From assembly GCA_036741875.1 (NCBI GenBank), contig DAINRM010000003.1, positions 6,683 through 70,682 of the forward strand: a DNA stretch of 64,000 nt. Reading direction: 5' to 3'. The stretch is from Patescibacteria group bacterium (GTDB taxonomy: Bacteria; Patescibacteriota; Minisyncoccia; UBA6257; HR35). Both the position numbers and the translations under genes were made by a program. Within the stretch, counting starts at the first letter, position 1. Each line of letters starts with the position of its first letter. Below are positions 13,431 to 61,991 of this stretch, in pieces. The notes beneath the pieces are model-generated. The model had not been told where the DNA came from, searched no databases, and saw only the letters and a program-made list of their open reading frames with translations.

Positions 13431-13432
13431 TT

Positions 13433-16441: not shown

Positions 16442-16594
16442 TTATTTCAAATTTCGACTCGGTGATTTAATAATTTCTTCTTTAAAATTTTCAAACTCTT
16501 TTTGAAAAGATGTTGAGGTAATTAAAATTTTAAATAAGAAAAGAATTAAAACAATCAAAAAAAATTTTTTTAAAGTTTGCCAAGCTTTATCCAT
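16442..16594 (-). CDS. Possible small membrane protein (50 aa), absent from the ORF track
   Basis: ATG at 16592-16594 through TAA at 16442-16444 gives MDKAWQTLKKFFLIVLILFLFKILITSTSFQKEFENFKEEIIKSPSRNLK, with one predicted TM. It fills the 153-nt gap between holB and frr. Confidence 0.2.
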   Translation of the reverse strand: MDKAWQTLKKFFLIVLILFLFKILITSTSFQKEFENFKEEIIKSPSRNLK

Positions 16595-17441
16595 AGCTTA
16601 AAATTAAACTTGTAAGTTGAAGGAACCAATTATAATCTTGATCAGTTTCACTGTAAAGATCAAGAAGGTCTTTTATTTCAAAGAGATGTTTTTGATTAAT
16701 TTCTTTTAAAGAAACAGCTTTTTCTATAAGTTCTTTTCTTTTTTTAAGAATTAAAAGCTCAATGATTTCTTTATAAATTTTATTAATTTTTTCGCTAAAA
16801 TCTAAATTTTTTTCTAAGTCAAAATAGTTAAAAACATTTCTTAAAAGCTCTATTTTTTCTAAGGAAGTTGCTTGAAAATAAAAATTTTTATAAAAAGTAA
16901 TTTTTTGCTTATTTTTAATAAGATTATATGCTTTACCTGGTTGATAAGGAAAAAAGGAAAAAGCAAAATCAATGTCTGCTTCTGAAAAATTTTTTTCCTT
17001 AAGAAATTTTAAAGTAAGTTCTTGAGGAACTAAAGAAAATTTAATTTCTAAACTTCGAGATCTTATTGTAGGTAAAATTTTCTTTTTTTGATGGGAAATA
17101 AAAACAAAAAGAGTATCTGAAACTGGTTCTTCAATAGTTTTTAAAAGCACGTTTTGACTTTCTTCTTTAAATTTATGTATTTCATCGATTAGAATAATTC
17201 TTTTATTTTTTGGTTTAGTTAAAGTAATTTTACCTATGAATCTGGCTGAATCGATACTAAAAATTTTTTTATCTGATTTAAAGATTATATATTCCCATTC
17301 ATTTTTTTTGTCTTTTAAAATTTCTTTCACAAAAGAAAATTTTCCTATTCCTTCAGGACCAAAAATTAAAAGAGCTCCTCTTTTTTCTAATAATAACCAT
17401 TCTTTTACTAAGTTTTGTTCTTTTTCATTACCATAAATCAT
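16587..17441 (-). CDS. holB: DNA polymerase III delta-prime subunit-like AAA+ clamp-loader protein
   Basis: LLIFGPEGIGKFSFVKEIL (Walker A-like), IILIDEIHKF (Walker B), TLFVFISHQKKKILPTIRSRS (sensor / SRC-like). Confidence 0.7.
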   Translation of the reverse strand: MIYGNEKEQNLVKEWLLLEKRGALLIFGPEGIGKFSFVKEILKDKKNEWEYIIFKSDKKIFSIDSARFIGKITLTKPKNKRIILIDEIHKFKEESQNVLLKTIEEPVSDTLFVFISHQKKKILPTIRSRSLEIKFSLVPQELTLKFLKEKNFSEADIDFAFSFFPYQPGKAYNLIKNKQKITFYKNFYFQATSLEKIELLRNVFNYFDLEKNLDFSEKINKIYKEIIELLILKKRKELIEKAVSLKEINQKHLFEIKDLLDLYSETDQDYNWFLQLTSLILSYG

Positions 17442-18445
17442 GAAGTTAATCTTTTATAAATATCAATTTTTTCTAAGACCTTACCTGTTCCTCTAGCTAC
17501 AGCAAAAAGAGGATTTTCAGCAATAAAAGTTTTAATAGAAGTTTGTGAAGAAATAAGTTCGTCAATTTTTCTTAAAAGAGCTCCACCACCAGAAAGAACA
17601 ATACCTTTTTCCATAATGTCAGCCACAAGTTCTGGTGGTGTATTGGCTAAAACTCTCTTAATGCCACTGATAATTTCTTTAAGTTCCTTTTGAAGAGCTT
17701 CAGCTACATGAGAAGAAGTTATCTCCACACTTTTAGGAAGTCCGGTTAGATAATCAATGCCATTAACAATCATTTTAAGATCTTCTTGATTTTTATGATT
17801 TTTAAAAGGTAAAGCACTGCCTATTTGGATTTTAATCTGTTCTGCAGTTCTTTCTCCTATAGCTAAATTAAATTTTCTTTTAAGATACTCTCTAATAGCT
17901 TCATCCATTTTATCGCCAGCAATTTTAAGAGATTCAAAAGTCACAATACCACCTAAAGAAATAACAGCTATTTCTGTAGTTCCTCCTCCGATATTGACAA
18001 TCATATTTCCTGAAGGTGTTTGAATAGGCATTTCTGCACCAAGAGCAGCTAAAAGGGGTTCTTTGATAGGATAAACTTCACGAGCACCAGCTTCAAGACC
18101 TGCATCAATGATAGCTTTCTTTTCTGTAGAACTAATACCTGCAGGTACAGAAACAACTAAAGTTGGTTTAAAAAATTTAGTGATTTTGATTTTATTTAAG
18201 AAATATTTTAAAATAGCTAAAGTAGCTTGGTAATCAGCAATAACACCCTCTTTAAGTGGTCTATAAATCTTAATTTCTCTGGGGGTTTTACCGATCATCT
18301 CTTTAGCTTCTCTACCAACAGCAATAATTTTTCTAGATTTTTCATCATAAGCAACAACCGTGGGTTCGCTAATTATCACTCCTTTTTCTGGAAGATAAAC
18401 GTTAGAATTGGCTGTACCCAGGTCAATACCTATTTTAAGAAACAT
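17438..18445 (-). CDS. mreB: Rod shape-determining protein MreB
   Basis: MFLKIGIDLGTANSNVYLPEKGVIISEPTVVAYDEK...NIGGGTTEIAVISLGG...LSGGGALLRKIDELI is canonical MreB. Confidence 0.9.
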   Translation of the reverse strand: MFLKIGIDLGTANSNVYLPEKGVIISEPTVVAYDEKSRKIIAVGREAKEMIGKTPREIKIYRPLKEGVIADYQATLAILKYFLNKIKITKFFKPTLVVSVPAGISSTEKKAIIDAGLEAGAREVYPIKEPLLAALGAEMPIQTPSGNMIVNIGGGTTEIAVISLGGIVTFESLKIAGDKMDEAIREYLKRKFNLAIGERTAEQIKIQIGSALPFKNHKNQEDLKMIVNGIDYLTGLPKSVEITSSHVAEALQKELKEIISGIKRVLANTPPELVADIMEKGIVLSGGGALLRKIDELISSQTSIKTFIAENPLFAVARGTGKVLEKIDIYKRLTS

Positions 18446-36337: not shown

Positions 36338-39300
36338 TTACTCTAGAAATAACATATTTTCTCCGTAAATTTTAAAGAAATAATCCTTATCCTCACATTT
36401 TATAAAGAAATAAACATTTTCTGGCTCTATTATCTCAAACTCATAAATTTTTTGAGGCTCTAAGAAGTAGTTTTCATATTCATCTCGGTAAAATTCATAA
36501 TAGGCAAAATTATATTCGTTTTTGCAAATTTTATCTCCTGTTTCTTTGTATTTTAAATTTAAAATCTTTTCTCCTTCTTCACTTTTAACTTTTATCTTTA
36601 AATCATTAAAACCTTGACCATCATCTCTTTTTTCTATAATTCTCAAATTGATAAGTTGATAACCCTTAGAATTATTTTCAAATGAAATTTTTTTTACTTC
36701 TCCGTTTTCATCTTCAAAAAACTTTATTTCTTTTAAGGGAATTTCGGGGTTATTATTGTATCCTGAAAATTTATAAGATAAAGTCGTTGAGGAGATTTCT
36801 GTTTCTTCTGACTTATAAAGAGAAAGATTAATTACATAATCCAGATTCAAAAAAAGATCACTAGGGCTTAAATCAATTTTAAATGAATTAAAGGTTAACG
36901 GTTTAAATCTTATTTCATCTAGATAAGAATTATTTAAAACATAAAAAAGAGATGTGGTTTCATAATAAGCTGGAGAAAGCCAACTCAAAACAAGTTCAAA
37001 TTGATGATAGGGTTTTTCTTTTGTTTCTTTAATACTATTATCAAAGGAAATTAAGGTATAAGTAGTAGAATCTTTTTTAAGTTCTAAATTGGGTTTATTA
37101 ATAGTTTTAAAAACTTTTTTTACGATCTGAGAATTGTAGGGAACTCCATCAGAAAAAACAAAAGTCTCTCTTATTAAATAGTTATAATCGTCATCAAAAG
37201 CTATATAGCCATTTCCAAGATTTTCTAACTCTTCTTGATTTAAAACTTCTTCATGGCTAATTTTTTTTCTTTCTATCACTTTATTTTCAGGTGGATTTTC
37301 TAAGCAATTAAAATTTTCTACATCACCCCAACATAAATAATCAATTAATTTATCATTATTATCAAAAAGTGCTAAACCATTATCATAAGTTAAACCATAA
37401 ACTGATGATGTAGGATAGATATAATCTGCAGAAATATTAAGGGTATTACATGTTTCCTTATTCACGATTAAAAAATAAGAAAATGGTTGAATAACAGCTT
37501 TAATTTTAGTAGGAGCCACTAGATTTAAATTGCTATAATTTCCATTCCTGGTTATCTTTTTAAGATACCAACCCGAAAGATCTATAGGAAATTCGTTGGG
37601 GTTGTAAAATTCAATAAATTCTCCTTGATTATTATCAACTCCCTTAACTATTTTGACTTTAGAAATAAGTATTTTTCCCTCATTTCTAGCATTTTCAAAG
37701 TTATCTTGTGAATGATCTATTACATGACATTCCGCTATTTGATCTTGAAAACATAAGTTTTTAGGAAATAAAACTTCAGTAGATGTTGAAGCTTGATTTT
37801 CATCATCAATAAGATCTTTAATAAAAACAAAAAACTTTATTGAAGAAGGCAAGCAATTTTCAAAGGGGATTTTAATTAAATAATCTTTAGTAGAAGAGCT
37901 TAAAGAAAAAGTGGAAGTTAGATAATTAAACAAAGAAAGATCGCTTAGGTCTGAAGAGGTTGAAACTTTAATTTCAAAATAATAATTTGATGAAAAATCT
38001 TGATCAGCGTTTAAGGAAAAATTAATTTCCAAGAATTTACCCTCTGATGAAGTTGAAATATTAACATCAAAATTTTGAAAAGTTATTTCACTTAAATCAA
38101 CAAAGTCATTTCGAGGAAGATCGGTAAAGAATGAATTTTTAGGAGAAGGTTGATGAAGCCATAAATCTTTTGAGTTATTATCAGTATCTTGAAAGTTTTT
38201 TCTTTGAATTGATTTATTATCAAAAGATTGAGCTATAAAGGGCGAATTTTCATATTGATAAATTTTTTCAATATTATCTCCATAACCAATTAAATCTGAA
38301 ATTTCTCCATTTGGTTTTCTTAAGATAATAACGTTATTATTAGCGATTGAATAACTTTCTGCATAAGATAAATCTCCTTGATATTTTTCTTTTGTTGATG
38401 AAGAAGTAATAAGGAAATAACTATAAGGTTTTATTTTGCCTTTAAATTTTGAAGAAGGAATAAGAGTTGTTAATTTTGGAGTTGAGTTTGGGTTTTGCCT
38501 TGAGGCATATTTTTCTAAACTCCAGCAAGTTAAATCTATTTCTTCGTTATTAGGGTTATAAAGCTCTATAAATTCATCTTTAGTCTCATCATCAGTTTCA
38601 AATTGAATTTCATTGATAATTATTTTGGGATAGTTTTTATTCTTGTAATCATCACAAAAGTCTTTTTTGCTACTTAAATTTGAAAAACTTCGGCCTCCAC
38701 CATAACTTAAAGTAATAGGCTTATTATTATTATTTTCTTGATTTATATTATTTTGAGAAAGTTCTTTATCAGATGTCTTTTGGGTTGAAGTAGATAAAAT
38801 TTTTGTAGAAGTTGTTAAAATTTTTGAAATTTCATTTAAGACATTTGCTATATTTGAATTTGAATTATCTTGACTTTCTTTGTTTTTACGTTGATTTTTG
38901 GGTTTTTTATAAACCTCGTAAGAATAAAATGTAATGTCTCGATTTGAAGTAATTAAATTTTGATTTAAATCTCGGTTTTGATTTTGATTTTCTAAAGAAG
39001 TTAGCTTTTTGTTTTCTGAAGTTAGGGCTTTATTCGTTTTAACTTCAGTAATGTTTTTGGAAGTAATAATAGCCGGAGTAGAATTAAAATATTTAACTGA
39101 CATAGTCTTAATTGACATTTCTAAAAATCTTTTTTTCATTTCAAGTTCAGCTAATTTCCTTTCTTTTTGTAAAGCAACTTTATCTTTAATACATTCCTTC
39201 TTTTTCTTAATAGGCCAATCATTATCAGTACATTCAGTATAATTTGTTCTAATTTTTGAAAGAGAGCAAGAAAAATCGGTGGAAGGACAATTATAAACAA

Positions 39301-39922
39301 AAATTGTGTCATCTAAAATTTGATCCCATTCTTCACGTTTACTTTGATAATCTTTAAAATATTCTAAATTAGGATTATATCTTCTAATTGCTTTTTCTTC
39401 ATCTTCGTTAATTCCATCATACTTTAATTTTATTGCTGCTGCATAAAGAGAATCTTCTAAATTCCAGGGATTTTTATTTTGAAGTTCTTTATATTGAAGC
39501 CAAGTTGTAGGTTGAAACTGAGTATAGCCAATCCCAAAATCAGGAGAAAATGGAACTTTATTAATATCTAAGCCTAAATTAGAAGTAATTTTTTCTAAAG
39601 TAGAATACTGTTGATGACACCATTGAGTTCGAGCTTCGATGGAATAACAATTTGTACCATTTATAGGTGGTATTAAACTTTTTAAATATTCGCAATACTT
39701 AACACAAGCAGTAATATTTTTATCTTTCGAACCTAAATTTCTACCTAAATCTTTTCCAAATCCACTTTCTTTTTCAATTATTGTCAAAATATAACTTGGT
39801 GTTTTTAATCCCACAATTTTGTATGCCTTATCTATTGCTTCAATAACTCTTTTCCATTCTAAAGCAAAAACTAAACCAATAAATAAAAACAAAAGCAAAA
39901 TAATTGCTTTTGTTTTATTCAT
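36338..39922 (-). CDS. Large (1194 aa) secreted/cell-surface protein: N-terminal MltB-like lytic transglycosylase domain, low-complexity N/S/T-rich linker, and two lamin-tail domains (LTD)
   Basis: Signal peptide MNKTKAIILLLFLFIGLVFA. LT-like block IIEKESGFGKDLG...GIGYTQFQPTTW (compare MltB ES...GAMGQxQFMPSTW). LTD1 KIIINEIQFETDDETKDEFIELYNPNNEEIDLTCWSL. LTD2 KILISKVKIVKGVDNNQGEFIEFYNPNEFPIDLSGWYL. Confidence 0.6.
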   Translation of the reverse strand: MNKTKAIILLLFLFIGLVFALEWKRVIEAIDKAYKIVGLKTPSYILTIIEKESGFGKDLGRNLGSKDKNITACVKYCEYLKSLIPPINGTNCYSIEARTQWCHQQYSTLEKITSNLGLDINKVPFSPDFGIGYTQFQPTTWLQYKELQNKNPWNLEDSLYAAAIKLKYDGINEDEEKAIRRYNPNLEYFKDYQSKREEWDQILDDTIFVYNCPSTDFSCSLSKIRTNYTECTDNDWPIKKKKECIKDKVALQKERKLAELEMKKRFLEMSIKTMSVKYFNSTPAIITSKNITEVKTNKALTSENKKLTSLENQNQNRDLNQNLITSNRDITFYSYEVYKKPKNQRKNKESQDNSNSNIANVLNEISKILTTSTKILSTSTQKTSDKELSQNNINQENNNNKPITLSYGGGRSFSNLSSKKDFCDDYKNKNYPKIIINEIQFETDDETKDEFIELYNPNNEEIDLTCWSLEKYASRQNPNSTPKLTTLIPSSKFKGKIKPYSYFLITSSSTKEKYQGDLSYAESYSIANNNVIILRKPNGEISDLIGYGDNIEKIYQYENSPFIAQSFDNKSIQRKNFQDTDNNSKDLWLHQPSPKNSFFTDLPRNDFVDLSEITFQNFDVNISTSSEGKFLEINFSLNADQDFSSNYYFEIKVSTSSDLSDLSLFNYLTSTFSLSSSTKDYLIKIPFENCLPSSIKFFVFIKDLIDDENQASTSTEVLFPKNLCFQDQIAECHVIDHSQDNFENARNEGKILISKVKIVKGVDNNQGEFIEFYNPNEFPIDLSGWYLKKITRNGNYSNLNLVAPTKIKAVIQPFSYFLIVNKETCNTLNISADYIYPTSSVYGLTYDNGLALFDNNDKLIDYLCWGDVENFNCLENPPENKVIERKKISHEEVLNQEELENLGNGYIAFDDDYNYLIRETFVFSDGVPYNSQIVKKVFKTINKPNLELKKDSTTYTLISFDNSIKETKEKPYHQFELVLSWLSPAYYETTSLFYVLNNSYLDEIRFKPLTFNSFKIDLSPSDLFLNLDYVINLSLYKSEETEISSTTLSYKFSGYNNNPEIPLKEIKFFEDENGEVKKISFENNSKGYQLINLRIIEKRDDGQGFNDLKIKVKSEEGEKILNLKYKETGDKICKNEYNFAYYEFYRDEYENYFLEPQKIYEFEIIEPENVYFFIKCEDKDYFFKIYGENMLFLE

Positions 39923-40703: not shown

Positions 40704-41039
40704 TTATACTTCTTTATTTTGAAATTCTTGTAATTTTTTCTTTTCTTTTATTTTTTCTATCTTTCTTATAGCCCAACTTTCAAGTTTTAAAGATTCGATT
40801 TTAATTCTCATAAGAATTTTTTCAAAAAAATTTAAAAGAAGATAGTAAATAAAATTTAAAAATGGTGAATAAATTTTTTTGGCGAAGTTTAATCTAAAGA
40901 TTCTTATTTTGTTTTGAAGTTTAAGCCATTCAATATAGTCTTTTCTTTCAAGTTTTATATTTTTAGTTTGAAAATAAAGATAAACTATGCCTAAAAATAA
41001 AGAAAGAAAACTTAAGAAGATTAAAATAAAATTAATCAT
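40704..41039 (-). CDS. Hypothetical small membrane protein (111 aa)
   Basis: ORF with an N-terminal TM. Overlaps the tsf start by 8 nt. Confidence 0.35.
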   Translation of the reverse strand: MINFILIFLSFLSLFLGIVYLYFQTKNIKLERKDYIEWLKLQNKIRIFRLNFAKKIYSPFLNFIYYLLLNFFEKILMRIKIESLKLESWAIRKIEKIKEKKKLQEFQNKEV

Positions 41040-41622
41040 CTAAAGAAAGTCTTACAAATCTTCCTATTTCTATTTTTTCTCCAAATTTATTAACATAACT
41101 ATTTATAAGATCTCTAATCTTAATATTTTCATCTCTAAAATAAGGCTGATCTAAGAGAGAAACTTCTTCTAACCATTTTTCTAATTTTCCTTTAAAAATA
41201 GATTCTTGAACTTCTTGAGGTTTGTTTTCTAAACCAGCTAAAAATTCTTTTCTTTTTTCTTCTAAAACTTCTTGAGGAATATGTTCTAAAGAAATGTAAA
41301 GTGGCTTTAAAGCAGCAACTTGAATAGCTAATTCATAAGCTAATTTTTTAAATTCCTCGTTTTGAGCTACAAAGTCAGTTTCACATTTAAGTTCGAGCAA
41401 AGAAGCTATTCTGCCGTTAAAATGAACGTAAGCAGCCACTCTGCCTTGTGAAGTTTTAACCTCTTTCTTTTTTTCTAAAAGAGATTCTCCTTTTTTTCTT
41501 AAATACTCCTCTGCTTTTTCTAAATCATAGTTTGAATTTTGAAGAGCTTCTAAACATTTCCCCAAGGGGGCACCTGTTTTTTCTCTTAAAACTTTTACCT
41601 TTTCCAAGATTTCTTTATCCAT
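41032..41622 (-). CDS. tsf: Elongation factor Ts
   Basis: MDKEILEKVKVLREKTGAPLGKCLEALQNSNYDLEKAEEYLRKKG is the EF-Ts UBA-like N-terminus. Follows rpsB. Confidence 0.85.
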   Translation of the reverse strand: MDKEILEKVKVLREKTGAPLGKCLEALQNSNYDLEKAEEYLRKKGESLLEKKKEVKTSQGRVAAYVHFNGRIASLLELKCETDFVAQNEEFKKLAYELAIQVAALKPLYISLEHIPQEVLEEKRKEFLAGLENKPQEVQESIFKGKLEKWLEEVSLLDQPYFRDENIKIRDLINSYVNKFGEKIEIGRFVRLSLDD

Positions 41623-41630
41623 TATTTTAT

Positions 41631-42347
41631 TTAACTATTTAATTTTGACTTAATTTTTTCTTCTAACCAGTTTATTACAAACGAGATACTTCGAGGAGCT
41701 TTGTCATTACAAGGAACAAAATAATTAACTCCGGTTATATCATTATCAGAACCAGCTAAGGCAAAAATAGGTATTTTAAGCTTAAGAGCTTCTCTTTTAG
41801 CAGTGAGATGAGATGGATGAGCTAAATTAACAATAAAAAGAGCGTCTGGAAGTTTTTCTAATTTAATTACCCCGCTATAAATATTTTTTAACTTATTAAG
41901 TTCTCTTTCAAGTTTTGATCTTTCTTTTGGAGGATATTCCTCTAACTCTTTGGTTTCTTCTTTTTTAAGTAAATCTTTAAAATAAGCTAAACGGGAAAGA
42001 GAAGTTGAAAAATTTGTTAAAAAACCGCCAACCCACTTATAATTCATATAAGGCTGATTAAAGGTTAAAGCAAAATTAGCTACTCTTGAAGAAGCTGCTG
42101 GCGTTATAGCTACAAAAAGAATTGTTTTTTCTGATTTTAGGTAATCTGTTAAAGCATTAGCCATTTCGTTCATTTTTTGAAAAGTTAATTGAAGATTAAA
42201 AATTTCAATATTATATAAAGTATTAATCAAAAATGGTCTCATCGTTGGATGAGTATATTTTTTAGCTCTTCCATACTGAACACCAGCTTTTTGCATTTCT
42301 TCAAAAATTGTTCTTTCTTCTGTGATCATGATTATTTTTTGATTCAT
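41631..42347 (-). CDS. rpsB: 30S ribosomal protein S2
   Basis: 238 aa S2 family (MITEERTIFEEMQKAGVQYGRAKKYTHPTMRPFL...). The rpsB-tsf arrangement is canonical. Confidence 0.85.
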   Translation of the reverse strand: MNQKIIMITEERTIFEEMQKAGVQYGRAKKYTHPTMRPFLINTLYNIEIFNLQLTFQKMNEMANALTDYLKSEKTILFVAITPAASSRVANFALTFNQPYMNYKWVGGFLTNFSTSLSRLAYFKDLLKKEETKELEEYPPKERSKLERELNKLKNIYSGVIKLEKLPDALFIVNLAHPSHLTAKREALKLKIPIFALAGSDNDITGVNYFVPCNDKAPRSISFVINWLEEKIKSKLNS

Positions 42348-42389: not shown

Positions 42390-42602
42390 ATGAAAAAGAA
42401 AATTCATCCTCAATATATTCTAACAAAAGTAAGGTGTGCTTGTGGCGCTGAATATGAAGTTTACGGAACAAAAAAAGAAATTTTTGTAGAAGCTTGCAAA
42501 AGTTGTTCTCCTCTTTTTACTGGTAAAGAAGAAACAAAAGTTATTATTGGTAGAGTTGAAAAATTTGTTAAAAAATATTCTAAAAAGAAAAAAGAGGAGT
42601 AA
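42390..42602 (+). CDS. rpmE: 50S ribosomal protein L31
   Basis: MKKKIHPQYILTKVRCACGAEYEVYGTKK...CKSCSP is an L31 Cys motif. Confidence 0.85.
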   Translation: MKKKIHPQYILTKVRCACGAEYEVYGTKKEIFVEACKSCSPLFTGKEETKVIIGRVEKFVKKYSKKKKEE

Positions 42603-42637
42603 TTTAAATTATAACTTAGTTCTTTAAAAATTTAAAA

Positions 42638-43372
42638 ATGGAAAACAAAGAAATTCAGAGTATTTATTTTGAAATTAGAGCTGGTGTAGGTGGCGAAGAG
42701 GCTTCTCTTTTTGCTCGTGATCTTTGGAGAATGTATAGTAAGTTTTTTGATAGAAGGGGTTGGAAATATAGAATCTTAGATATCTCTGAAAGCGATTTAG
42801 GTGGCATAAAAACTTTAGTAGCGGAGGTTACTGGTGAACGTGTTTATGATCTTTTAAAACAAGAAGCTGGTGTTCATCGAGTTCAAAGAATTCCTATCAC
42901 AGAAAAAAGTGGAAGAATTCATACCTCTACTGCTTCAGTGGCTATTTTACCAAAACTTTCTTTACCTCAAATTCAAATAAAAGAATCTGATATAGAAATA
43001 GAATTTTTTAGATCTGGTGGACCTGGAGGACAAAATGTAAATAAGGTAGAAACTGCTGTAAGAATAAGACATAAACCCACAGGAATTGTTGTTTCTTGTC
43101 AAGTAGAAAGAAGTCAGCAAAGAAATAGAGAAATTGCTATGGAAATGTTAAAAAACAAAATATGGCAAATGGAACAAGAAAAAATTTTAGGAAACTTAAC
43201 AGAAGAAAGAAGAAAACAAATAGGTTCGCAAGAAAGATCTGAAAAAATTAGAACTTACAACTTTCCTCAAAATAGAGTGACTGACCACAGAATAAATAAA
43301 AGCTGGTATGATTTAGACGAAATTATGGAAGGAAAATTAGATAAAATAATTGAAGCTTTCCAAAAAAAGTAA
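42638..43372 (+). CDS. prfA: Class I peptide chain release factor, RF1-like (PxT = PIT, GGQ present), lacking the N-terminal domain 1
   Basis: 244 aa. Aligns to E. coli RF1 from about residue 107 onward: [22 protein letters not shown]; [20 protein letters not shown]; [28 protein letters not shown]; [13 protein letters not shown]. Only 35 nt separate it from rpmE upstream. Confidence 0.75.
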
Positions 43373-43394: not shown

Positions 43395-43466
43395 GGCACG
43401 GTGGCGGAGTGGTTACGCAGCGGTCTGCAAAACCGCTTTACGCCGGTTCGAATCCGGCCCGTGCCT
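43395..43466 (+). tRNA. tRNA-Cys (anticodon GCA), discriminator U73
   Basis: Acceptor GGCACGG/CCGTGCC, anticodon stem GCGGT/ACCGC with loop CTGCAAA, T-arm GCCGG TTCGAAT CCGGC, and a 3-bp D-stem. Confidence 0.75.
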
Positions 43467-43470
43467 CGAA

Positions 43471-44259
43471 TTATAAATATCCGATTTCTTTAAGATAATC
43501 TCTATACTCCCATTCCCAAAGAGTTTTACAACCAAGAAAGGCTTTAAAATCTTCTTCAACATTATCAAAAGCTTTAAGTTCCCATTCTCCTAAAATATCA
43601 CCAAACTTATGATCGCAAAAGGCATCACCACCTTCTATTTTTGAACCCATCTTTCTTAATTTCATCACCGCTCCACATTTTTCACAAATTCTTTTTTGAT
43701 TAATTCTTAAAACATATCTCTTTTCTAAGGGTTTAAGAAGAGGAATTTTTCTTCCTTTTTCATCTCTAAAAAATCCTTCTTCATTTAAGGCCATAAAATA
43801 AGCTGATGTTTGAAGTCTATAATCCTCGTAAATACTTTGAGAAGTTTTAATATCAATTAAAGAAAATTGCCCATCAAGTTCACCAATAATATCAAAAGTT
43901 CCAGCATAACGATGAAGAAAATGAACTGTTTTTTTCTCTAACCAGTCTTCTCTGGAAAAAAAAGAGTGATTTTTAAGAAAATCTTCGAAAGCTTTTTTAA
44001 TACCTTCATATTCTGGAGGAACAATAATTTGTCTTCTTTGTATAAAGCTTTCAATAATTTCATGAATTATTTTCCCTTCATCAGCTGCTTTTATTTTTTT
44101 GTTAGTAGCTTCTTTAAAGTTTGGTGCCTCAGCATAAAAATAGTAAAGAGCAGGCTTACTTTTAATTTCACAAATTTTTGTTACCCGTGGATACCAGGTG
44201 TTATCTATTATATAACCAAATTCTTTTTTAAATTCTTCAAGATTATTTATTTTATTCAT
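43471..44259 (-). CDS. PD-(D/E)xK nuclease of the RecB/Cas4-like family with a putative 4-Cys cluster
   Basis: GTFDIIGELDGQFSLIDIKTS (D...D/E-x-K), QTSAYFMAL (QxxxY). Cys pattern: one N-terminal Cys (RVTKICEIK) plus CEKCGAVMKLRKMGSKIEGGDAFC at the C-terminus. Confidence 0.6.
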   Translation of the reverse strand: MNKINNLEEFKKEFGYIIDNTWYPRVTKICEIKSKPALYYFYAEAPNFKEATNKKIKAADEGKIIHEIIESFIQRRQIIVPPEYEGIKKAFEDFLKNHSFFSREDWLEKKTVHFLHRYAGTFDIIGELDGQFSLIDIKTSQSIYEDYRLQTSAYFMALNEEGFFRDEKGRKIPLLKPLEKRYVLRINQKRICEKCGAVMKLRKMGSKIEGGDAFCDHKFGDILGEWELKAFDNVEEDFKAFLGCKTLWEWEYRDYLKEIGYL

Positions 44260-44262
44260 CTT

Positions 44263-44940
44263 TTAAAAATATCTTAAATAATTCGTCCAAAGTTCATAAA
44301 TTTTAGCTGTGGTTAAAACATCGCCTAAAGCGTAATAAACTAAACTTTTATAATCTTTATTTTTTATAATATCTCTTACTTTTTTACCATCAAATTTTTC
44401 CTTAGGATCTTCTAAGCCAAAAGAAAAGGCTGTCAATTTTAAACTTAGTTTTTGAATTCTATTATTAAAACTTAGTTTTTCATAAAGATCGATATGATAT
44501 TCTTTATCTAAAATAGCGTAGGTTGGTCTAATTTTGTGTTTTAAAGAACGATAAAGTAAAAAAGGTATATCAAATTTATTACCATTGAAAGTGATAATTT
44601 CCTGATAATTAGGAACAATTTCCCAAAATTTTTTTATTAATTCTTCTTCTGAGCTAAACCTTTTAAAATCTATCAAATTTTCTGACCAATCTTCAATTTC
44701 CTCTTTACTTTGAAAATAAACAGCTCCTCTTTGAGTATCTGGATTATAAAAACTAATAGCCACTATTTCGCTAAATTGTGGTAAGAGAGAGATTTTTTCA
44801 TTAATAATTTCAATAAGATCTTCTCTTGATTTTTCTTTGAAATCATTAGAAAATTTTTCTAAAAGATATTCTTGAATTTCTATGGGAAGTTCAGCAAATT
44901 CTGGTCCATAAGTTTCGATGTCGAAAATTAATTTTTGCAT
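44263..44940 (-). CDS. DEDDy-type 3'-5' exonuclease (RNase H-like fold, related to the PolB exonuclease domain; YprB/RNase_H_2-like)
   Basis: Exo I LIFDIETYG, Exo II ITFNGNKFDIPFLLYRS, Exo III YYALGDVLTTAKIYE. Confidence 0.65.
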   Translation of the reverse strand: MQKLIFDIETYGPEFAELPIEIQEYLLEKFSNDFKEKSREDLIEIINEKISLLPQFSEIVAISFYNPDTQRGAVYFQSKEEIEDWSENLIDFKRFSSEEELIKKFWEIVPNYQEIITFNGNKFDIPFLLYRSLKHKIRPTYAILDKEYHIDLYEKLSFNNRIQKLSLKLTAFSFGLEDPKEKFDGKKVRDIIKNKDYKSLVYYALGDVLTTAKIYELWTNYLRYF

Positions 44941-47615: not shown

Positions 47616-47688
47616 GCCCCCGTAGCTCAATTGGTAGAGCAACGGCCTTTTAAGCCGGTGGTTGCAGGTTCGAGTCCTGCCGGGGGCA
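47616..47688 (+). tRNA. tRNA-Lys (anticodon TTT)
   Basis: Acceptor GCCCCCG/CGGGGGC, D-arm GCTC AATTGGTA GAGC, anticodon loop CTTTTAA, T-arm GCAGG TTCGAGT CCTGC. Confidence 0.85.
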
Positions 47689-47693
47689 CAAAA

Positions 47694-55331: not shown

Positions 55332-56210
55332 TTATGTGGATAAAAAGCTTTTTGTTTTTTCTTCTGCTTCTTTCTCGCTTTCAACCCAAACGATTTCCTT
55401 TATTTTTTTAAGTTCTCTTATTTGTTTTTTAGCAAACCTTTTTGTTTCTAAAAGACAGCCTCTCTTAGCTTCTTCAAGATCTATTTCACCTAAAACGAAT
55501 TTTCCAAACCAATCATATTCTAAACCAAAAGAAATAATTCTTTTAAAAGAAAGACCAATTTTTCTTAATTTTTTTATTTCTTCAATAATAAAGGGTATTC
55601 TTTTTTTAAGTCTTTCTTCTATTCTCCTTTCTAATTCTTCCCACGGAATTAAGATACTTAAAATAAGAAAATTAAGTTTTGGATCTTTTTTAATGGGTTC
55701 AATTTTATCTATTTTTAATATTATTTCAAGTCTTCTAATTAATCTTCTTTTGTTATTTAAATCAAGATTTTCTAGGGCTAAAGGGTTAATTTTTTTTATT
55801 TTTTCTATGAGTTCTTCATTGCTTAATTTTTCTAATTCTCTTCTCAATTTATAATCAGGTTTTACTGGAGGAAGAAGCCATCCTTCTTTTAAAGCTTTAA
55901 GATATAAAATAGTGCCTCCGCAAAAAATAGGTACTTTATCATTTTTTGTAATTTTATTTACCGCCTTATAAGCATCTTTAAGCCATCTAGCTAAAGAATA
56001 ATTTTTTCTGGGAGAGGCTACAGAAAGAAGATGGTGTTTTATTCCCTTCATTTCTTCTTTGGTAATTTTACCGCTGCCCCAATCTAAAAATTTATAAACC
56101 TGGCGGGAGTCAGCATTTATAACTTCACCATTAAATTTTTTTGCTAAATAAACAGCTAAATCAGACTTTCCTGAAGAAGTAGGGCCGGTAATAAAGATAG
56201 CTTTTTTCAT
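55332..56210 (-). CDS. miaA: tRNA dimethylallyltransferase
   Basis: AIFITGPTSSGKSDLAVYLAKKFNGEVINADSRQVYKFLDWGSGK is a MiaA P-loop plus the ADSxQVY motif. Confidence 0.85.
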   Translation of the reverse strand: MKKAIFITGPTSSGKSDLAVYLAKKFNGEVINADSRQVYKFLDWGSGKITKEEMKGIKHHLLSVASPRKNYSLARWLKDAYKAVNKITKNDKVPIFCGGTILYLKALKEGWLLPPVKPDYKLRRELEKLSNEELIEKIKKINPLALENLDLNNKRRLIRRLEIILKIDKIEPIKKDPKLNFLILSILIPWEELERRIEERLKKRIPFIIEEIKKLRKIGLSFKRIISFGLEYDWFGKFVLGEIDLEEAKRGCLLETKRFAKKQIRELKKIKEIVWVESEKEAEEKTKSFLST

Positions 56211-57262
56211 TTTCTTTTCTCCTCAAAAGAATTTAAAATACCTAAAAGCCATAAGTCGAAAATTAAATGTGAGCCACCATAGGAAAGAAAAGGTAAAGGA
56301 AGTCCAATAATAGGAAACATACCAAAATTTATAATGGTTGTTAAAATGAATTTGGCTAAGAAATAAATAATAACTAAATAAGTAAAGTTCTTAATGTTTA
56401 TATCGTTAGAAAAAAAATAAGTTTTATAAATTTCTCTTATTAAAAGAAAAATTAAGAAAAGGTAAATAAGAAAACCGAAATAACCTCTTTCCTCGATAAT
56501 AAAAGTCAAGATAAAATCAGTACTCGCTGAAGGCAAATATCCATATTTACCAATTTCTGAACTTCCTACACCTAAACCAAAAAAGTTGGTTACTCCTAAA
56601 ATAATTCTTATTTGTCTTAAATTATATTCTGTTTTTAAGGGATCTTTTCCAGAAAAAATAAAAGAAATAATTCTTTCTTTTTGATATTCTTTAAAAACAA
56701 AAAAGTAAAGAAAGAGAAAAGTAATTAAAAAAGAAATTAAAATAAAAGCCAATGTTTTTTTAGGAAGGAAAAATAAAATTGAAAAAAACCAAATAAGAAA
56801 GTAAAGAAAAACCATTCCCATATCAGGTTGAAGATAAATTAAAAAAAGATAAGGCAAAAGTAAGGAAAAGGAAAGGAAAAGATAAATGATGTTTTTTAAT
56901 TTTGAAAGATAATAAGAAAGAAAATTAGATAAAATAAGAAAGAAAGAAATTTTAGCAAATTCAGATGGTTGAAAATTAAAAGGTCCTAAATTAAACCAAC
57001 TTTTGATATGACCTGGAGTAAAGAGAACTAAAATTAAAAGAAAAAAACTAATAGTTAAGATAAAATAAAAGTAAAATTTTTCAAAAATTATTTTGTAATC
57101 AATAATCTTAAAAGAAAAAAATAAAAGAGAGCCTATAAGCCAAAAAAATATTTGTTTAAGGAAAAGATCAAACTTACCTAAAGAAAAAAGAGCTGTTAAA
57201 GAAATTATCATAAAATTTAGTAAAATAAGAGTAATGATAAGAAGTCTATTTTTTTCGATCAT
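56207..57262 (-). CDS. FtsW/RodA/SpoVE-family peptidoglycan glycosyltransferase (SEDS)
   Basis: 351 aa polytopic protein. The C-terminal block FPIIGLPLPFLSYGGSHLI is the SEDS signature. Confidence 0.8.
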   Translation of the reverse strand: MIEKNRLLIITLILLNFMIISLTALFSLGKFDLFLKQIFFWLIGSLLFFSFKIIDYKIIFEKFYFYFILTISFFLLILVLFTPGHIKSWFNLGPFNFQPSEFAKISFFLILSNFLSYYLSKLKNIIYLFLSFSLLLPYLFLIYLQPDMGMVFLYFLIWFFSILFFLPKKTLAFILISFLITFLFLYFFVFKEYQKERIISFIFSGKDPLKTEYNLRQIRIILGVTNFFGLGVGSSEIGKYGYLPSASTDFILTFIIEERGYFGFLIYLFLIFLLIREIYKTYFFSNDINIKNFTYLVIIYFLAKFILTTIINFGMFPIIGLPLPFLSYGGSHLIFDLWLLGILNSFEEKRK

Positions 57263-58024: not shown

Positions 58025-58678
58025 TTATCTTAAACTGAAGAAAAAATTTTCAACAAGTTTCACTACTGTAAAAGAAGAAAAGGAAATTAAAATCCCTATA
58101 GCAATATAAATAAAGTTTTTATGGATTTCAGAAGATTTCTCTGGTTTAGCTATATAATTAAAACCTGTCCAAATAAGCATAATAACTGTTGCCAAAAAGG
58201 CAGCTTTATAAAAAAGGCTTAGGAATAAATAAATAAGATAAAAAAAACATAATGACCAGGCATTTTGAGAAAGAGTAGAAGTCTCAAAAACTGAAGGAAT
58301 CTCGATACCACCACATTTTATACTTTCAGGAGGATTGTATTCTGGCAACCCTTCGGCAAAAACAAAATTAAAAATATTGAAAGAAATTAAACGAGAAATA
58401 AGTAGAACTAGAGCATAAGAAAGAAGAGCTAAGACAAGTCCTACTGCTCCCCATAAAATTCTTTTATGAATTTCGCTTGATTTTTCAGGTTTAGACATAT
58501 AAAGAAAACCAGCCCAAAAAATCATTAAAGTAGAAAAGGCAATAGCTAAGGTACTTGTGATAATTAAAACTTGATTAAAAATATAAAAGAAGCAATCCAG
58601 AAAATTTCTATTTTCACATAAAATAGGAGGCAATTCTGGAAAGGTGTTTGTTGATATTTGAGCTAAAATTTCAAACAT
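58025..58678 (-). CDS. Membrane protein (217 aa) containing two tandem copies of the Cys-pair + TM-loop-TM module
   Basis: Internal repeat: CENRNFLDCFFYI...FWAGFLYMSKPEKSSEIHKRILWGAVGLVLALL and CGGIEIP...SLCFFYL...IWTGFNYIAKPEKSSEIHKNFIYIAIGILISF. Confidence 0.5.
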   Translation of the reverse strand: MFEILAQISTNTFPELPPILCENRNFLDCFFYIFNQVLIITSTLAIAFSTLMIFWAGFLYMSKPEKSSEIHKRILWGAVGLVLALLSYALVLLISRLISFNIFNFVFAEGLPEYNPPESIKCGGIEIPSVFETSTLSQNAWSLCFFYLIYLFLSLFYKAAFLATVIMLIWTGFNYIAKPEKSSEIHKNFIYIAIGILISFSSFTVVKLVENFFFSLR

Positions 58679-58696
58679 TCATCAATTTTATTAAGT

Positions 58697-59065
58697 TTAT
58701 TGAGTTTGAAATCCTAAAAGTCTTCCTATTAGCCAAGCTATTGCAAAAGAAAGAAGTGCTACTATAATACCGACAATAGCAAAAAGAATTTTACTTCTAG
58801 CCTTACCAACTTCTTCTGCTTTTTCTCCAGAAGTCATAAATGCCCAAGCGGCTCTAAAGATTTCGAAAGCACCCCACGCTAAGGCTATAAAACCCAGTAA
58901 ATAAAAAACGCTTCTAACAACACAAATTATTCTTTGAATTATATCTCCATATTGAGTGATACAGTTAGAAATAATAGGAATTTCCTCTATAGGACCTTGA
59001 GCATAAGTTGGAACAATATGAAAAATAGTTAAAAATAAGGTTAGAATTATAATTAATTTTCTCAT
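58697..59065 (-). CDS. Small secreted two-TM membrane protein (122 aa), paralog family member
   Basis: Signal peptide MRKLIIILTLFLTIFHIVPTYAQG. Cys pair CITQYGDIIQRIIC. TM, loop FMTSGEKAEEVGKARSKILFAIVG, TM. Confidence 0.5.
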   Translation of the reverse strand: MRKLIIILTLFLTIFHIVPTYAQGPIEEIPIISNCITQYGDIIQRIICVVRSVFYLLGFIALAWGAFEIFRAAWAFMTSGEKAEEVGKARSKILFAIVGIIVALLSFAIAWLIGRLLGFQTQ

Positions 59066-59137
59066 TTTTTAATCTACAAAAATTTCGACCCTTTTTAAAT
59101 TTTAAAATAAATTTTAAAATAAAAAAACAAAAATTTG

Positions 59138-59533
59138 TTAAAAACTCGGACCTCCAAAAATAAATCTAATTAATGTAAAAACTCCGGAAATAATAAGCAA
59201 AACAATATAACCAACAACAGCATTTTTAATATATCTCCAACCGATATCCCTTGCTTCTGGTTTAAAAGTAATTAGCAAAAACCAAAACCCTCCAATAATA
59301 ATTAAGGCAGTCAGTGAAAAAGGAGCTAAATATAGAATAAAATTCCAAACTCTTTGTATAAATTCCATTAAAGAAACAAATTCACAAGGTTCTTTACCAA
59401 ATATACCTGGAGGACAAGGATTTATTGTTACTTCTGTCCAGGTAACAACAACTTCTCCTGGTTTTTTCATTTCTATCTGAGCCAAACTTAAACTGAAGAT
59501 TAAAAATAAAGTTAAAAATAAAAATTTTCTCAT
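59138..59533 (-). CDS. Small secreted two-TM membrane protein (131 aa), paralog family member
   Basis: Signal peptide MRKFLFLTLFLIFSLSLA. Cys pair NPCPPGIFGKEPCEF. TM, loop TFKPEARDIGWRYIKNAVVG, TM. Confidence 0.5.
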   Translation of the reverse strand: MRKFLFLTLFLIFSLSLAQIEMKKPGEVVVTWTEVTINPCPPGIFGKEPCEFVSLMEFIQRVWNFILYLAPFSLTALIIIGGFWFLLITFKPEARDIGWRYIKNAVVGYIVLLIISGVFTLIRFIFGGPSF

Positions 59534-59922
59534 GGTCCGAAAATTATTCTTTCTATTTGATCTTTAATAAGATCTCCTAAGAGAACAATAACAATACCTA
59601 CCGGAGTCCAAGTAAGTATTTTCCAGGCTGTTGCTATATTTTTTAGACCAAAAAATGGTGTTGTTATAAGATAAATAGCTGCTCCAAAAAAAGCGATTAC
59701 CATTAAAATTAAGGCAAAACTTTTAAGAAGTTCTAAAATATCAAAAATACATTTAAAAATTTGTTCTGTCGCTGATTTAGCTCCACTTCCACATCTTAAG
59801 CTAGAATAAATAGGTTCTCTAAAAAAATTCAGAATCGAATAAAATGGATCTTGGTTTTCTTCACTTGAAAAAACGAAGTTTATCACAAAGATTATCAAAA
59901 ATAAAAAAATTATTTTTTTCAT
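59530..59922 (-). CDS. Small secreted two-TM membrane protein (130 aa), paralog family member
   Basis: Signal peptide MKKIIFLFLIIFVINFVFS. Cys pair RCGSGAKSATEQIFKC. TM, loop PFFGLKNIATAWKILTWTPVG, TM. Confidence 0.5.
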   Translation of the reverse strand: MKKIIFLFLIIFVINFVFSSEENQDPFYSILNFFREPIYSSLRCGSGAKSATEQIFKCIFDILELLKSFALILMVIAFFGAAIYLITTPFFGLKNIATAWKILTWTPVGIVIVLLGDLIKDQIERIIFGP

Positions 59923-59928
59923 TATGCT

Positions 59929-60288
59929 TTAATATTTTAATTTAGGACCAAAAAATTCCAAAACAAAATCAAAAATAACACCAATACTCAAAAGTAAAAT
60001 ATAACCTACAATAGCTGTTTTAATCATATCCTTACCTCTTTTTTCTAAATCAGGTCTCGGACCTCCGAACATCCATAAAAAGGAGCCTATAACGGAAACC
60101 AAAACAGAAAACCAAAAACCAATAAAAACAGCAAAAGAAAGAAGTCTTCTAATATTTATAAAAATTTCTTCAACAGTGCAAGGGTCATTTTGACAATAAA
60201 TAATTCCTCTAGAAAAATCTTCATTTTGGAGAAAGGCTAAATTAGGTAAAGTAAGAAAAAAAAGAATAAATAAAATAATTTTTCTCAT
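59929..60288 (-). CDS. Small secreted two-TM membrane protein (119 aa), paralog family member
   Basis: Signal peptide MRKIILFILFFLTLPNLAF. Cys pair YCQNDPC. TM, loop FGGPRPDLEKRGKDMIKTAIVGY, TM. Confidence 0.5.
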   Translation of the reverse strand: MRKIILFILFFLTLPNLAFLQNEDFSRGIIYCQNDPCTVEEIFINIRRLLSFAVFIGFWFSVLVSVIGSFLWMFGGPRPDLEKRGKDMIKTAIVGYILLLSIGVIFDFVLEFFGPKLKY

Positions 60289-61473
60289 TTAAAATTTTAA
60301 ATTCAATAAAAACAAGGCTCTTCGTCCTTCTTCTTTATTATTTTCCCAAATATTCAAAATATTTTCAAAATCATCATAATTTTCATGAGAAATAAACCCT
60401 AAGTATGAAGAACCAAAAATGGCTCCTTTAATAAAAGCTTCTTTTTTCTCAGACAAATTTTGAAAAGAAAAGTTGGGTACGAGATCAAATTTTTCTATAA
60501 ATTCTTCATAATTTTTTCCACTAAAAAGCCAATTAAAAAAATAAAGAGAGATTTCTTTTTTTTGTGAAGCTTTGGGCAAAACAAAATAAAAAACTTTTAC
60601 AAAATTTTTAGATGAGGGTGGAAATGTTTCTATAGGGTTTTGATAAATCTCATATTCTATTCTAGGATTTAATTTAAGAATTTTTTTAAGATCTTCATAA
60701 AAAACAAAAGCTGAAGCTGATTTTATTGAAGAAAAAAGACTTATTTCGTCTTTACCTAGATTTCTTGCTAAAGCAAAATAGGGAGAGTTTTCATCGCTAT
60801 AACTAAAATAGGTATCAATAGCTTCTTGGAGAGAAGATTTTTTTAGAGACTTTAAAACTAAAATAATTTCTTTTTTATTTTTGATTTCTTTTGTTCCTAA
60901 GGAGACGAGATAAAAATCTCTATAACCTCTATTTTTAAAATCCTCTAGAAGCTCGTTTAATTCTTCTAACGTTTTAGGAGGATCATAATTTAAAAACTGA
61001 AAAACTTTTTTGTTATAAACAAAAAGAAGTGAATCAATATTCACGGGAAGACCAAATAAATCGATTTCTTCTTGAAAAAATTTTTTAGGCAAATTTAATT
61101 TTTTGTTCCATCCTTCCTCTAAATATTTTCTATTTCTAAAAACAAAATAGTTAGGTGCGTAAATAATATCAGGTGGGTTATTTTCGGCTAAAGAATAAAT
61201 AAATTTTTTTTCTAAATCATCGAATTTTATTTCTTCATAATCTATCCTTAAACAATATTTAGCGGCAAAAGGAGAAATAAAATTTAAAAAATCATTCCTA
61301 TCAAAAGAAGCCCAAATTATTAAATTAGTGTTAAAACAAGTTTTTGGTTTTCCTTCTTTAGATGGTTTCAAAAAAATATAGCCTATAAAAAGGATAACAA
61401 TAGTAAGTAAAATAAGTTGTATTCTAACATCTGTCAAAATTTTATTTTTTATTTCTTCTAAACTAAATCTCAT
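60289..61473 (-). CDS. Membrane-anchored extracellular solute-binding protein-like (SBP family 1 / sugar-binding type), orphan
   Basis: N-terminal TM. LIIWASFDRNDFLNFISPFAAKY, DIIYAPNYFVF and GLPVNIDSLLFVYNKKVF...PPKTLEELNELL match conserved SBP_bac_1 blocks. No permease or ATPase genes are adjacent. Confidence 0.55.
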   Translation of the reverse strand: MRFSLEEIKNKILTDVRIQLILLTIVILFIGYIFLKPSKEGKPKTCFNTNLIIWASFDRNDFLNFISPFAAKYCLRIDYEEIKFDDLEKKFIYSLAENNPPDIIYAPNYFVFRNRKYLEEGWNKKLNLPKKFFQEEIDLFGLPVNIDSLLFVYNKKVFQFLNYDPPKTLEELNELLEDFKNRGYRDFYLVSLGTKEIKNKKEIILVLKSLKKSSLQEAIDTYFSYSDENSPYFALARNLGKDEISLFSSIKSASAFVFYEDLKKILKLNPRIEYEIYQNPIETFPPSSKNFVKVFYFVLPKASQKKEISLYFFNWLFSGKNYEEFIEKFDLVPNFSFQNLSEKKEAFIKGAIFGSSYLGFISHENYDDFENILNIWENNKEEGRRALFLLNLKF

Positions 61474-61991
61474 TTTTGAAAAACTAAAAGATAAAAACCA
61501 GGGTATTCCTTTCTTTCTAATATTTTAAAGCCTATTTCATTACAAATTTTTTCAACTTCTTCTTGAGAATGGACTTTTTGACCAGAAAATAAAAAGTTTG
61601 AACTTTGAGGTTCATAAATTATTAAAAAACTATTATTTTTTATAACCCTAAAAGCTTCTTTAATTATTTTTTGTGGTTCTTTTGATTGATATAAAACTTG
61701 AGAAATAAAGACAAAATCAACTTGATTATTAGCTAAACCCGAATTTTTTTCTAAATCTTGTTTTAAAAATCTTATATTCTTCACTCCTAAGTTGTTGGCA
61801 AATTCTTGTGCTGATTTTAACTCATCTTCTAGAACATCTATAGCATAAATTGTTCCTGATGGTAAAACACTTTGCGCTAAAAGAATTGAAAAATAACCGC
61901 TTCCACATCCAAAATCGGCACCATTCATATTAGCAGCTATATACTTTTTCTCCTTTAAATACTTAACAATTTCTCCTGGTTTAGTAAACAT
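61470..61991 (-). CDS. Class I SAM-dependent methyltransferase (173 aa)
   Basis: GADFGCGSGYFSILLAQ (motif I GxGxG) and FDFVFISQVLY (motif II/III region). Confidence 0.7.
   Translation of the reverse strand: MFTKPGEIVKYLKEKKYIAANMNGADFGCGSGYFSILLAQSVLPSGTIYAIDVLEDELKSAQEFANNLGVKNIRFLKQDLEKNSGLANNQVDFVFISQVLYQSKEPQKIIKEAFRVIKNNSFLIIYEPQSSNFLFSGQKVHSQEEVEKICNEIGFKILERKEYPGFYLLVFQK

Follow-up and report, generated by a model that had tools for sequence, protein, structure and literature searches.

A release factor 1 gene without domain 1 at the rpmE-prfA locus of a Patescibacteria group bacterium

An N-terminal domain 1 is present in the textbook forms of bacterial release factors 1 and 2 (RF1 and RF2). 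To our knowledge, work on its role in docking to uL11 and the ribosomal stalk and in coupling to RF3 has been confined almost entirely to E. coli. On the ribosome, domain 1 touches the N-terminal domain of uL11 and the beak of the 30S subunit and is contacted by domain 3 of RF3 (PMC3677378). It is dispensable for codon recognition and release in vitro, and an N-terminally truncated E. coli RF1 works in vivo and supports growth; domain 1 is needed for action on RF3 (PMC1586002, summarising Mora et al. 2003, Mol Microbiol 50:1467). RF3 itself is not found everywhere, many lineages having lost it (PMC4342817). The only natural class I release factor homologue without domain 1 that we found discussed in the literature is PrfH (PMC1586002). 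Here we describe prfA, located at 42638..43372 (forward strand) in a 64,000-nucleotide stretch of contig DAINRM010000003.1 from a Patescibacteria group bacterium (contig positions 6,683 to 70,682; hereafter, the window). The gene encodes a three-domain RF1 consisting of domains 2, 3 and 4. Probably, it is the orthologous housekeeping RF1 of its Minisyncoccia/Parcubacteria lineage, from which domain 1 has been cleanly deleted at the domain 1/2 boundary and whose recycling would be RF3-free.

The window has a G+C content of 28% and is 93% coding, counting open reading frames (ORFs) of at least 100 residues. The prfA ORF runs from an ATG start to a TAA stop and encodes 244 residues. A first-pass annotation, made from the DNA letters, had this protein matching E. 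coli RF1 only from about residue 107, and Pfam, NCBIfam and solved structures all bear this out. The Pfam PCRF family matches with its C-terminal half only (positions 98-194 of 194, E = 4e-42), the Pfam RF-1 domain is complete (E = 8e-41), and the NCBIfam prfA models match from model position 101 or 110 to the end. In alignments with solved structures, residues 7-240 correspond to residues 109-343 of E. coli RF1 and residues 10-239 to residues 89-318 of T. maritima RF1. The protein does not have the four-domain architecture of RF1: it begins at the domain 1/2 boundary, at approximately E. coli RF1 residue 103-109. The annotation had also seen that there is no room for domain 1 upstream. The gene for ribosomal protein L31, rpmE, ends at 42602, and direct reading of the 35-nucleotide spacer between the two genes (42603..42637, forward strand) reveals an in-frame TAG at 42617-42619, 18 nucleotides before the ATG. 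This stop codon makes an N-terminal extension impossible and, together with the end of rpmE 35 nucleotides upstream, leaves no coding room at the locus for the ~100 residues of domain 1. By sequence, motifs, fold and locus, the short prfA is an RF1 orthologue, but an architectural variant.

The PxT-type codon-recognition region and the GGQ motif, which the annotation had called intact, are both present as quoted (R84 to residue 97 and S126 to residue 136, respectively). We compared the short RF1 with full-length RF1 (alignment A1) and within its own clade (alignment A3). Invariant in both alignments are Q83, P86, T88, H95, T96 and S97 of the decoding loop Q83-R-I-P86-I-T88-E-K-S-G-R-I-H95-T96-S97 (42884..42928, forward strand), which contains the PxT 'tripeptide anticodon' (P86-I87-T88) and the third-base His/Thr pair; the GGQ motif of peptidyl-tRNA hydrolysis at the tip of domain 3 (G130-G131-Q132; 43025..43033, forward strand); and a C-terminal R-T-Y-N-F-x-Q-x-R-x-T-D-H-R segment. 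The same holds for G16, G18, G19 and E21 of the sequence G16-V-G-G-E-E-A22 (42683..42703, forward strand), which we take to be the N-terminal tip of helix α5, the reader of the first stop-codon base, U1. A homologue search over 5.8 billion proteins gave the same picture among the 120 best clusters (70-96% identity): PxT and GGQ are found in all 120, and a G-x-G-G-x-E motif, 11-19 residues from the N-terminus, in 119.

An AlphaFold2 model of the 244-residue protein, calculated from 40 clade members, has a mean predicted local distance difference test score of 82.9. In Foldseek comparisons, the model can be superimposed onto domains 2-4 of ribosome-bound RF1 from T. thermophilus and E. coli (PDB 9mtr, 8akn, 7m5d, 4v63) with query-normalised template modelling (TM) scores of 0.89-0.90 and a r.m.s. 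deviation of ~2.1 Å over 237 columns, several of the deposited ribosome-bound RF1 chains being merely 242-260 residues long. The TM scores to the compact crystal forms 1rq0, 1zbt and 2b3t are 0.58-0.61. The predicted conformation is the open, ribosome-bound one and not the compact free state.

Over domains 2-4, the protein is ~50% identical to canonical RF1 (51% to E. coli RF1 by tblastn; 48-52% in Foldseek alignments with the E. coli, T. thermophilus and T. maritima proteins). It resembles canonical RF1 (PDB 4V63, 1RQ0, 7M5D) in the PxT loop, the tip of helix α5, the His/Thr third-base readers, the GGQ motif and the switch-loop region, but lacks domain 1 (~100 residues, which contact the uL11 N-terminal domain, the 30S beak and RF3), and its gene is not followed by prmC. 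RF2 (PrfB) is a paralogue built from the same four domains and is 36-43% identical over domains 2-4; it carries an SPF motif and reads UGA and UAA, whereas the loop in the short RF1 is P-I-T and there is no SPF. The 244-residue protein scores 245.8 bits on the prfB model TIGR00020, against a cut-off of 370. ArfB, ICT1 and C12orf65 have the RF-1 (GGQ) domain in common with the short RF1, but they have no domains 2/4 and carry a basic C-terminal tail that lies in the mRNA channel; the ArfB model matches residues 110-145 only, with 58.9 bits against a cut-off of 100. PrfH also lacks domain 1, has a GGQ motif and, at ~200 residues, is of similar size. It differs from the short RF1 in its non-canonical decoding residues, in always having an rtcB-like partner upstream, and in its function in the rescue of damaged or stalled ribosomes. 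PrfH chains in the PDB match the 244-residue protein at E = 3e-16 only, and the PrfH model TIGR03072 aligns to residues 9-208 with 81 bits, against a cut-off of 166.65. The annotation had set the protein apart from ArfB and PrfH on the grounds that both lack codon-recognition domains. This is correct for ArfB; PrfH, however, keeps homologues of domains 2/4, as the extent of the TIGR03072 match also indicates (PMC1586002). PrfH, ArfB and RF2 identities can be ruled out for the short prfA by the model scores, the motifs, the presence of domains 2/4 and the absence of an rtcB neighbour.

The engineered truncated forms of E. coli RF1 and RF2 have the same domain 2-4 architecture as the short prfA product, and by analogy the truncated RF1 would be its closest functional counterpart. 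The E. coli truncations are laboratory deletions with a growth cost in a host that has RF3, whereas the form described here occurs naturally, has become fixed in a clade and is maintained by strong purifying selection.

Short 'RF1' entries in databases call for caution: outside the Patescibacteria, those in a representative library at 50% identity are mostly fragments starting within the LLLPKDPND linker, and the gene in the window might likewise be a pseudogene in decay or the product of a wrongly called start, a frameshift or an assembly break. The in-frame TAG and the position of rpmE 35 nucleotides upstream speak against this, as does the identical protein sequence on an ENA contig (76,157 bp) and a JGI contig (75,871 bp). 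The relative P0091 (252 residues) is identical on at least 24 contigs from JGI, ENA, NCBI and Logan. In 119 of the 120 best clusters the protein is 239-252 residues long, the remaining one being a 185-residue fragment, and 119 of the 120 start with Met. Comparison of the window prfA with that of L236 (88% nucleotide identity) yielded a rate of non-synonymous substitution (dN) of 0.034 and a rate of synonymous substitution (dS) of 0.71. With a dN/dS ratio of 0.048, the gene is under strong purifying selection, and its product has a confident fold prediction. The in-frame stop codon, the independent assemblies, the conserved Met and the dN/dS ratio rule out start mis-calling, frameshift, assembly error and pseudogene alike, no upstream exon-like segment was found, and we give an artefact of any kind almost no credence.

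NCBI names the clade members 'PCRF domain-containing protein' and JGI 'peptide chain release factor 1'; the NCBI sources named among the 120 best clusters are Minisyncoccia, Candidatus Pacebacteria, Candidatus Parcubacteria and Patescibacteria group. Three-domain RF1 sequences are abundant in databases yet generically named. We found no published short RF1 family and no paper on the form; no description of an RF1 without domain 1 in Patescibacteria was found in the literature, including a paper on small ribosomes (PMC9297842) and a review of release factor evolution (PMC6514570). The three-domain form is unusual, given that the RF2 genes retrieved here with a readable 5' end keep domain 1 and that most short RF1 entries outside the Patescibacteria in the representative library are fragments.

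Domain 1 might also be encoded separately, as a small protein that associates with the 244-residue core. The domain is a loosely attached, poorly conserved helical bundle, of which a diverged copy would be hard to detect. A tblastn search with E. coli RF1 found only the known gene in the window, plus a chance match with E = 0.31, and no paralogue. Hidden Markov models made from the N-termini of 74 RF1 and 127 RF2 sequences detected no stand-alone domain 1 ORF in 840 six-frame segments from the window and from the loci L001, L205 and L206 (best E = 0.06-0.09). As domain 1 is poorly conserved, this negative result makes a split gene less likely but is not decisive. The N-terminal stubs of ~50 and ~25 residues in two longer relatives (see below) point to erosion and not to fission, and we consider a split gene very unlikely.

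The short gene lies in a conserved neighbourhood. Upstream of it, tsf (EF-Ts; 41032..41622) and rpsB (ribosomal protein S2; 41631..42347) are encoded on the reverse strand, and rpmE (70 residues; 42390..42602) on the forward strand. The assignment of rpmE is based on Pfam Ribosomal_L31 (E = 4.1e-20, positions 1-64 of 65); for tsf, which is an ORF in the window, Pfam EF_TS was found in the identical region of L002, and for rpsB, Pfam Ribosomal_S2 in L002 and L003. The rpsB gene is divergent from rpmE and fills the space upstream of it. Downstream of prfA, at a distance of 22 nucleotides, there is a tRNA-Cys (GCA) gene (43395..43467, forward strand; found by ARAGORN, Rfam tRNA 65.5 bits). A scan for promoters and terminators around rpmE-prfA gave a signal at chance level. 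The order tsf-rpsB on one strand and rpmE-prfA on the other recurs in L001, L205, L206/207, L232-237 and L240-249, more than 15 loci in all. One of these, L001, is a 556-kb NCBI contig. The homologous spacer is 34 nucleotides long in L001 and 38 in L236, and rpmE and prfA overlap by 4 nucleotides in L232-234. On the 662-kb JGI contig L205, a DNA glycosylase gene lies between rpmE and prfA, with an AT-rich spacer of 115 nucleotides before the start.

This locus bears on whether the gene is an accessory, RF1-like paralogue with a PrfH-like function in rescue or quality control, a full-length prfA being located elsewhere in the genome. The natural homologues without domain 1 that have been described so far are accessory factors only (PrfH; PMC1586002), the view of the genome is that of the 64-kb window, and the 244-residue protein falls below the NCBIfam prfA equivalog cut-offs. 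Yet the short gene occupies the canonical rpmE-prfA locus, and in L239 it is a full-length prfA that holds the same position. No rtcB gene was found beside the short prfA in the window, where the upstream genes are rpmE and rpsB, or in the related loci examined. The decoding residues are all those of canonical RF1, unlike in PrfH, whose model cut-off is missed by a wide margin (81 against 166.65 bits), and the 120 closest homologues in the clade are all short. Finally, the gradient of 306, 269 and 244 residues at one locus indicates reduction in place. An accessory paralogue is therefore improbable in our estimation. The annotation had weighed a minimised RF1 against an accessory paralogue; the former is favoured by its fixation in the clade, the rpmE locus, the dN/dS ratio of 0.048, the RF1 residues and the prfA scores, and the latter has found no support.

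The closest full-length relatives are 55-63% identical to the short RF1 over domains 2-4, and many have a 'DHRI(K/N)KSW' segment typical of the lineage. Full-length RF1s of related Patescibacteria are 338-370 residues long. The named sources of full-length RF1 are all Patescibacteria: Dojkabacteria (367 residues), Peregrinibacteria (353), Sungbacteria (340) and Parcubacteria GW2011_GWA2_45_30 (338). Between these and the short form stand proteins with N-terminal remnants. The 306-residue P0129 (L235) has a stub of ~50 residues and the 269-residue P0126 (L206) one of ~25; these are the two stub-bearing RF1s whose loci we inspected, and both genes lie beside tsf-rpsB-rpmE. P0385 and P0412 (302 and 293 residues) have stubs of ~48 residues, and P0191 (256 residues) has one of ~15. 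The graded stubs suggest stepwise erosion rather than one deletion. The simplest reading of these sequences is that domain 1 was eroded stepwise and in place within the Parcubacteria, with the clade of the window as the end point. A separate oddity is P0139 (332 residues), an RF1 with a short N-terminus whose domain 2 carries a low-complexity insertion of ~85 residues, rich in Ser, Pro and Thr, after the helix α5 region and before the PxT loop.

If the short prfA is the housekeeping RF1, termination could proceed as follows. The decoding superdomain 2/4 and the GGQ domain 3, which make up the remaining 244 residues, would bind to the ribosomal A site at UAA or UAG. The tip of helix α5, the P-I-T loop and His95/Thr96 would read the stop codon, domain 3 would swing into the peptidyl-transferase centre, and Gln132 of GGQ would drive peptidyl-tRNA hydrolysis, as in canonical RF1. 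The contacts of domain 1 with the uL11 N-terminal domain, the 30S beak and RF3 would be lost; because of this loss, the short RF1 would have to leave the ribosome without RF3, either spontaneously or during recycling by ribosome recycling factor (RRF) and EF-G. UGA would be read by a separate RF2. Peptidyl-tRNA hydrolysis dependent on UAA and UAG is predicted from the conservation of motifs and fold and from the precedent of the E. coli truncations. We also infer catalytic activity, UAA/UAG specificity, independence from RF3 and the status of sole RF1 of the genome.

Several points weigh against this reading. The 244-residue protein scores below the cut-offs of both NCBIfam prfA models (TIGR00019, 361.3 bits, cut-off 423.25; NF001859, 365.3 bits, cut-off 400), unlike domains 2-4 of E. 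coli RF1 alone, which reach 453 and 439 bits, respectively. Since the E. coli domains pass, the short RF1 must fall below through divergence as well as truncation; the family profiles give release factors from this phylum scores 15-20% lower than usual. Our view comprises the 64-kb window and 10 kb on either side of the genes of the relatives; a second full-length prfA, or a prfC, is possible elsewhere. What can be said about the activity of clade members is drawn from sequence, predicted fold and analogy. The RF2 of the lineage was never recovered in profile, metagenome and viral-contig scans. Finally, E. coli RF1 is inactive on ribosomes that lack L11 (reviewer comment in PMC1586002, citing Tate et al. 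1984), and for this reason the loss of the L11-contacting domain may need compensating changes.

All three stop codons are used in the window. Of 68 ORFs, 52 end with TAA, 12 with TGA and 4 with TAG. The RRF gene (15894-16433) and the LepA gene end with TGA, and both ORFs stop exactly at the ends of their Pfam profiles. UGA is thus a genuine stop codon, and therefore RF2 must exist in the organism. An omnipotent short factor that also reads UGA would make RF2 unnecessary and would account for the 12 TGA-terminated ORFs, and it is true that neither the window nor the clade has yielded an RF2 gene. On the other hand, the PxT motif, Q83, the G-x-G-G-x-E tip and H95/T96 are strictly of the RF1 type and invariant, and only ~64 kb are visible of a genome of probably 0.6-0.8 Mb, as estimated from the 556-kb and 662-kb contigs of relatives. 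Such a change of specificity is extremely unlikely.

In the search for RF2, the matches listed from a scan of genome contigs with an RF2-specific alignment all came from Firmicutes, Proteobacteria and comparable taxa. Metagenomes, scanned for SPFDxxx[KR]RHTSF by means of an AT-rich codon pattern, yielded 80 loci, which by sequence are SAR11-, Bacteroidota-, Mollicutes- and Campylobacterota-like and similar; all are full-length except for cuts at contig ends and three disrupted genes. The scans of viral contigs found only RF2 genes of phages or in the flanks of prophages, with domain 1. Across the 184 bacterial and phage loci retrieved (80 + 80 + 24), every RF2 gene whose 5' region could be read has domain 1. 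With an RF1-derived query, the RF2 of the same genome ranked 20th of 145 in L128. L103 was considered as a short RF2 and rejected, its gene containing a frameshift. On the AT-rich metagenome contigs L102 (VOFC01002066.1) and L122 (BNJS01001297.1), several stop codons or frameshifts break the RF2 gene both before and after an SPF motif that is itself intact; these may be prfB genes in decay, such as would be expected where UGA has been reassigned, or the assemblies could be poor. A group of large predicted phages (L219-L230, IMG/VR contigs of 40-396 kb and 26-40% G+C) encode their own RF2, all with a full domain 1 and with 45-53% identity to the decoding region of B. subtilis RF2.

We also looked for PrmC, the gene for which follows prfA in two full-length relatives, one of them Dojkabacteria-like, at the place where tRNA-Cys sits in the window. 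In these loci, a HemK/PrmC-type methyltransferase gene overlaps the end of prfA (L239:11091-11897 and L238:4455-5300). With 136 bits, the L239 protein, which contains NPPY, exceeds the cut-off of the HemK family model (115.5); the L238 protein has NKPY instead of NPPY. In the lineage with the 306-residue RF1, htrA directly follows prfA (L235:10922-12143). A PrmC-like gene was found neither in the 64-kb window nor in the 10 kb to either side of the short prfA in the 20 related loci examined. A profile search recovered PrmCs of Patescibacteria (Moranbacteria and a 'Patescibacteria group' bacterium), none of them on long contigs with a short prfA. The 173-residue methyltransferase at 61470-61991 was considered as a small PrmC and rejected: it is a generic class I enzyme without NPPY and scores 31 bits on TIGR03534, against a cut-off of 199. 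From these gene contents, loss of PrmC together with domain 1 is possible. More broadly, and only tentatively, a large Parcubacteria/Minisyncoccia clade may have a stripped-down termination apparatus, with three-domain class I release factors (possibly RF2 too), no RF3 and perhaps no methylation of GGQ by PrmC; the series of 367, 340, 306, 269 and 244 residues would then record the stepwise loss of the module that docks to RF3 and uL11.

An RF1 without domain 1 that is spread across a clade and strongly selected is a natural experiment, and it indicates that stop-codon reading and release need domains 2-4 only. It suggests that domain 1 is dispensable in nature; given the E. coli truncation work, this is a natural confirmation and mechanistically not unexpected. 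The predictions are genomes without prfC, dissociation of the release factor without RF3, and possibly compensating changes at uL11 or the GTPase-associated centre. With the short RF1, a translation factor joins the ribosome components that are minimised in Patescibacteria. The truncation also explains the 'PCRF domain-containing protein' labels, and prfA marker-gene models can under-call such presumably essential genes.

Two gene groups flank the prfA neighbourhood. A pair on the reverse strand (43471-44940), convergent with prfA and tRNA-Cys, encodes a PD-(D/E)XK nuclease-like protein (262 residues) and a PolB-type 3'-5' exonuclease-like protein (225 residues), and is kept in the close relatives L002 and L236. 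On the other side, a 1194-residue protein (36338-39922, reverse strand) carries an SLT_2 lytic transglycosylase domain at its N-terminus and, in addition, lamin-tail (LTD) domains; its gene adjoins the tsf-rpsB block in close relatives as well (L002, L236, L237).

Elsewhere in the window, a 546-residue ORF (7902-9542, reverse strand) contains two Thy1/ThyX-like stretches and is about double the usual length of ThyX; it scores 32.6 bits on the NCBIfam thyX model (cut-off 87.9) and, judged by its sequence, may be a divergent flavin-dependent thymidylate synthase that arose by fusion or duplication. An apparent N-terminal truncation of GyrA at the end of the window was dismissed, the gene running off the window. 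The longest-ORF call for ribosomal protein L25 (47574-48257) overlaps a tRNA-Lys gene (47616-47689); gene callers on identical contigs start L25 after tRNA-Lys but differ from each other (187 residues in L002 and 85 in L003). An α-glucan cluster is present in this reduced genome (49607-55287, reverse strand), comprising a GDE_C amylo-α-1,6-glucosidase-like protein, a 593-residue PF05693-type glycogen synthase (E = 7e-128), a GH57 protein and a GT4/GT5 glycosyltransferase. Tandem small proteins with type IV secretion system (T4SS)-pilin/TrbC-like domains adjoin a solute-binding protein (58025-60288, reverse strand), and a distant member of the clade has similar pilin-like pairs ~6 kb away from its short prfA (L240-L246, ~16500-17600). 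Two MreB paralogues (12414-13490 and 17438-18445, reverse strand) are accompanied by MreC, a PBP2-type transpeptidase and an FtsW/RodA-family protein (56207-57262); together, these genes are a full rod-shape set in a very small genome.

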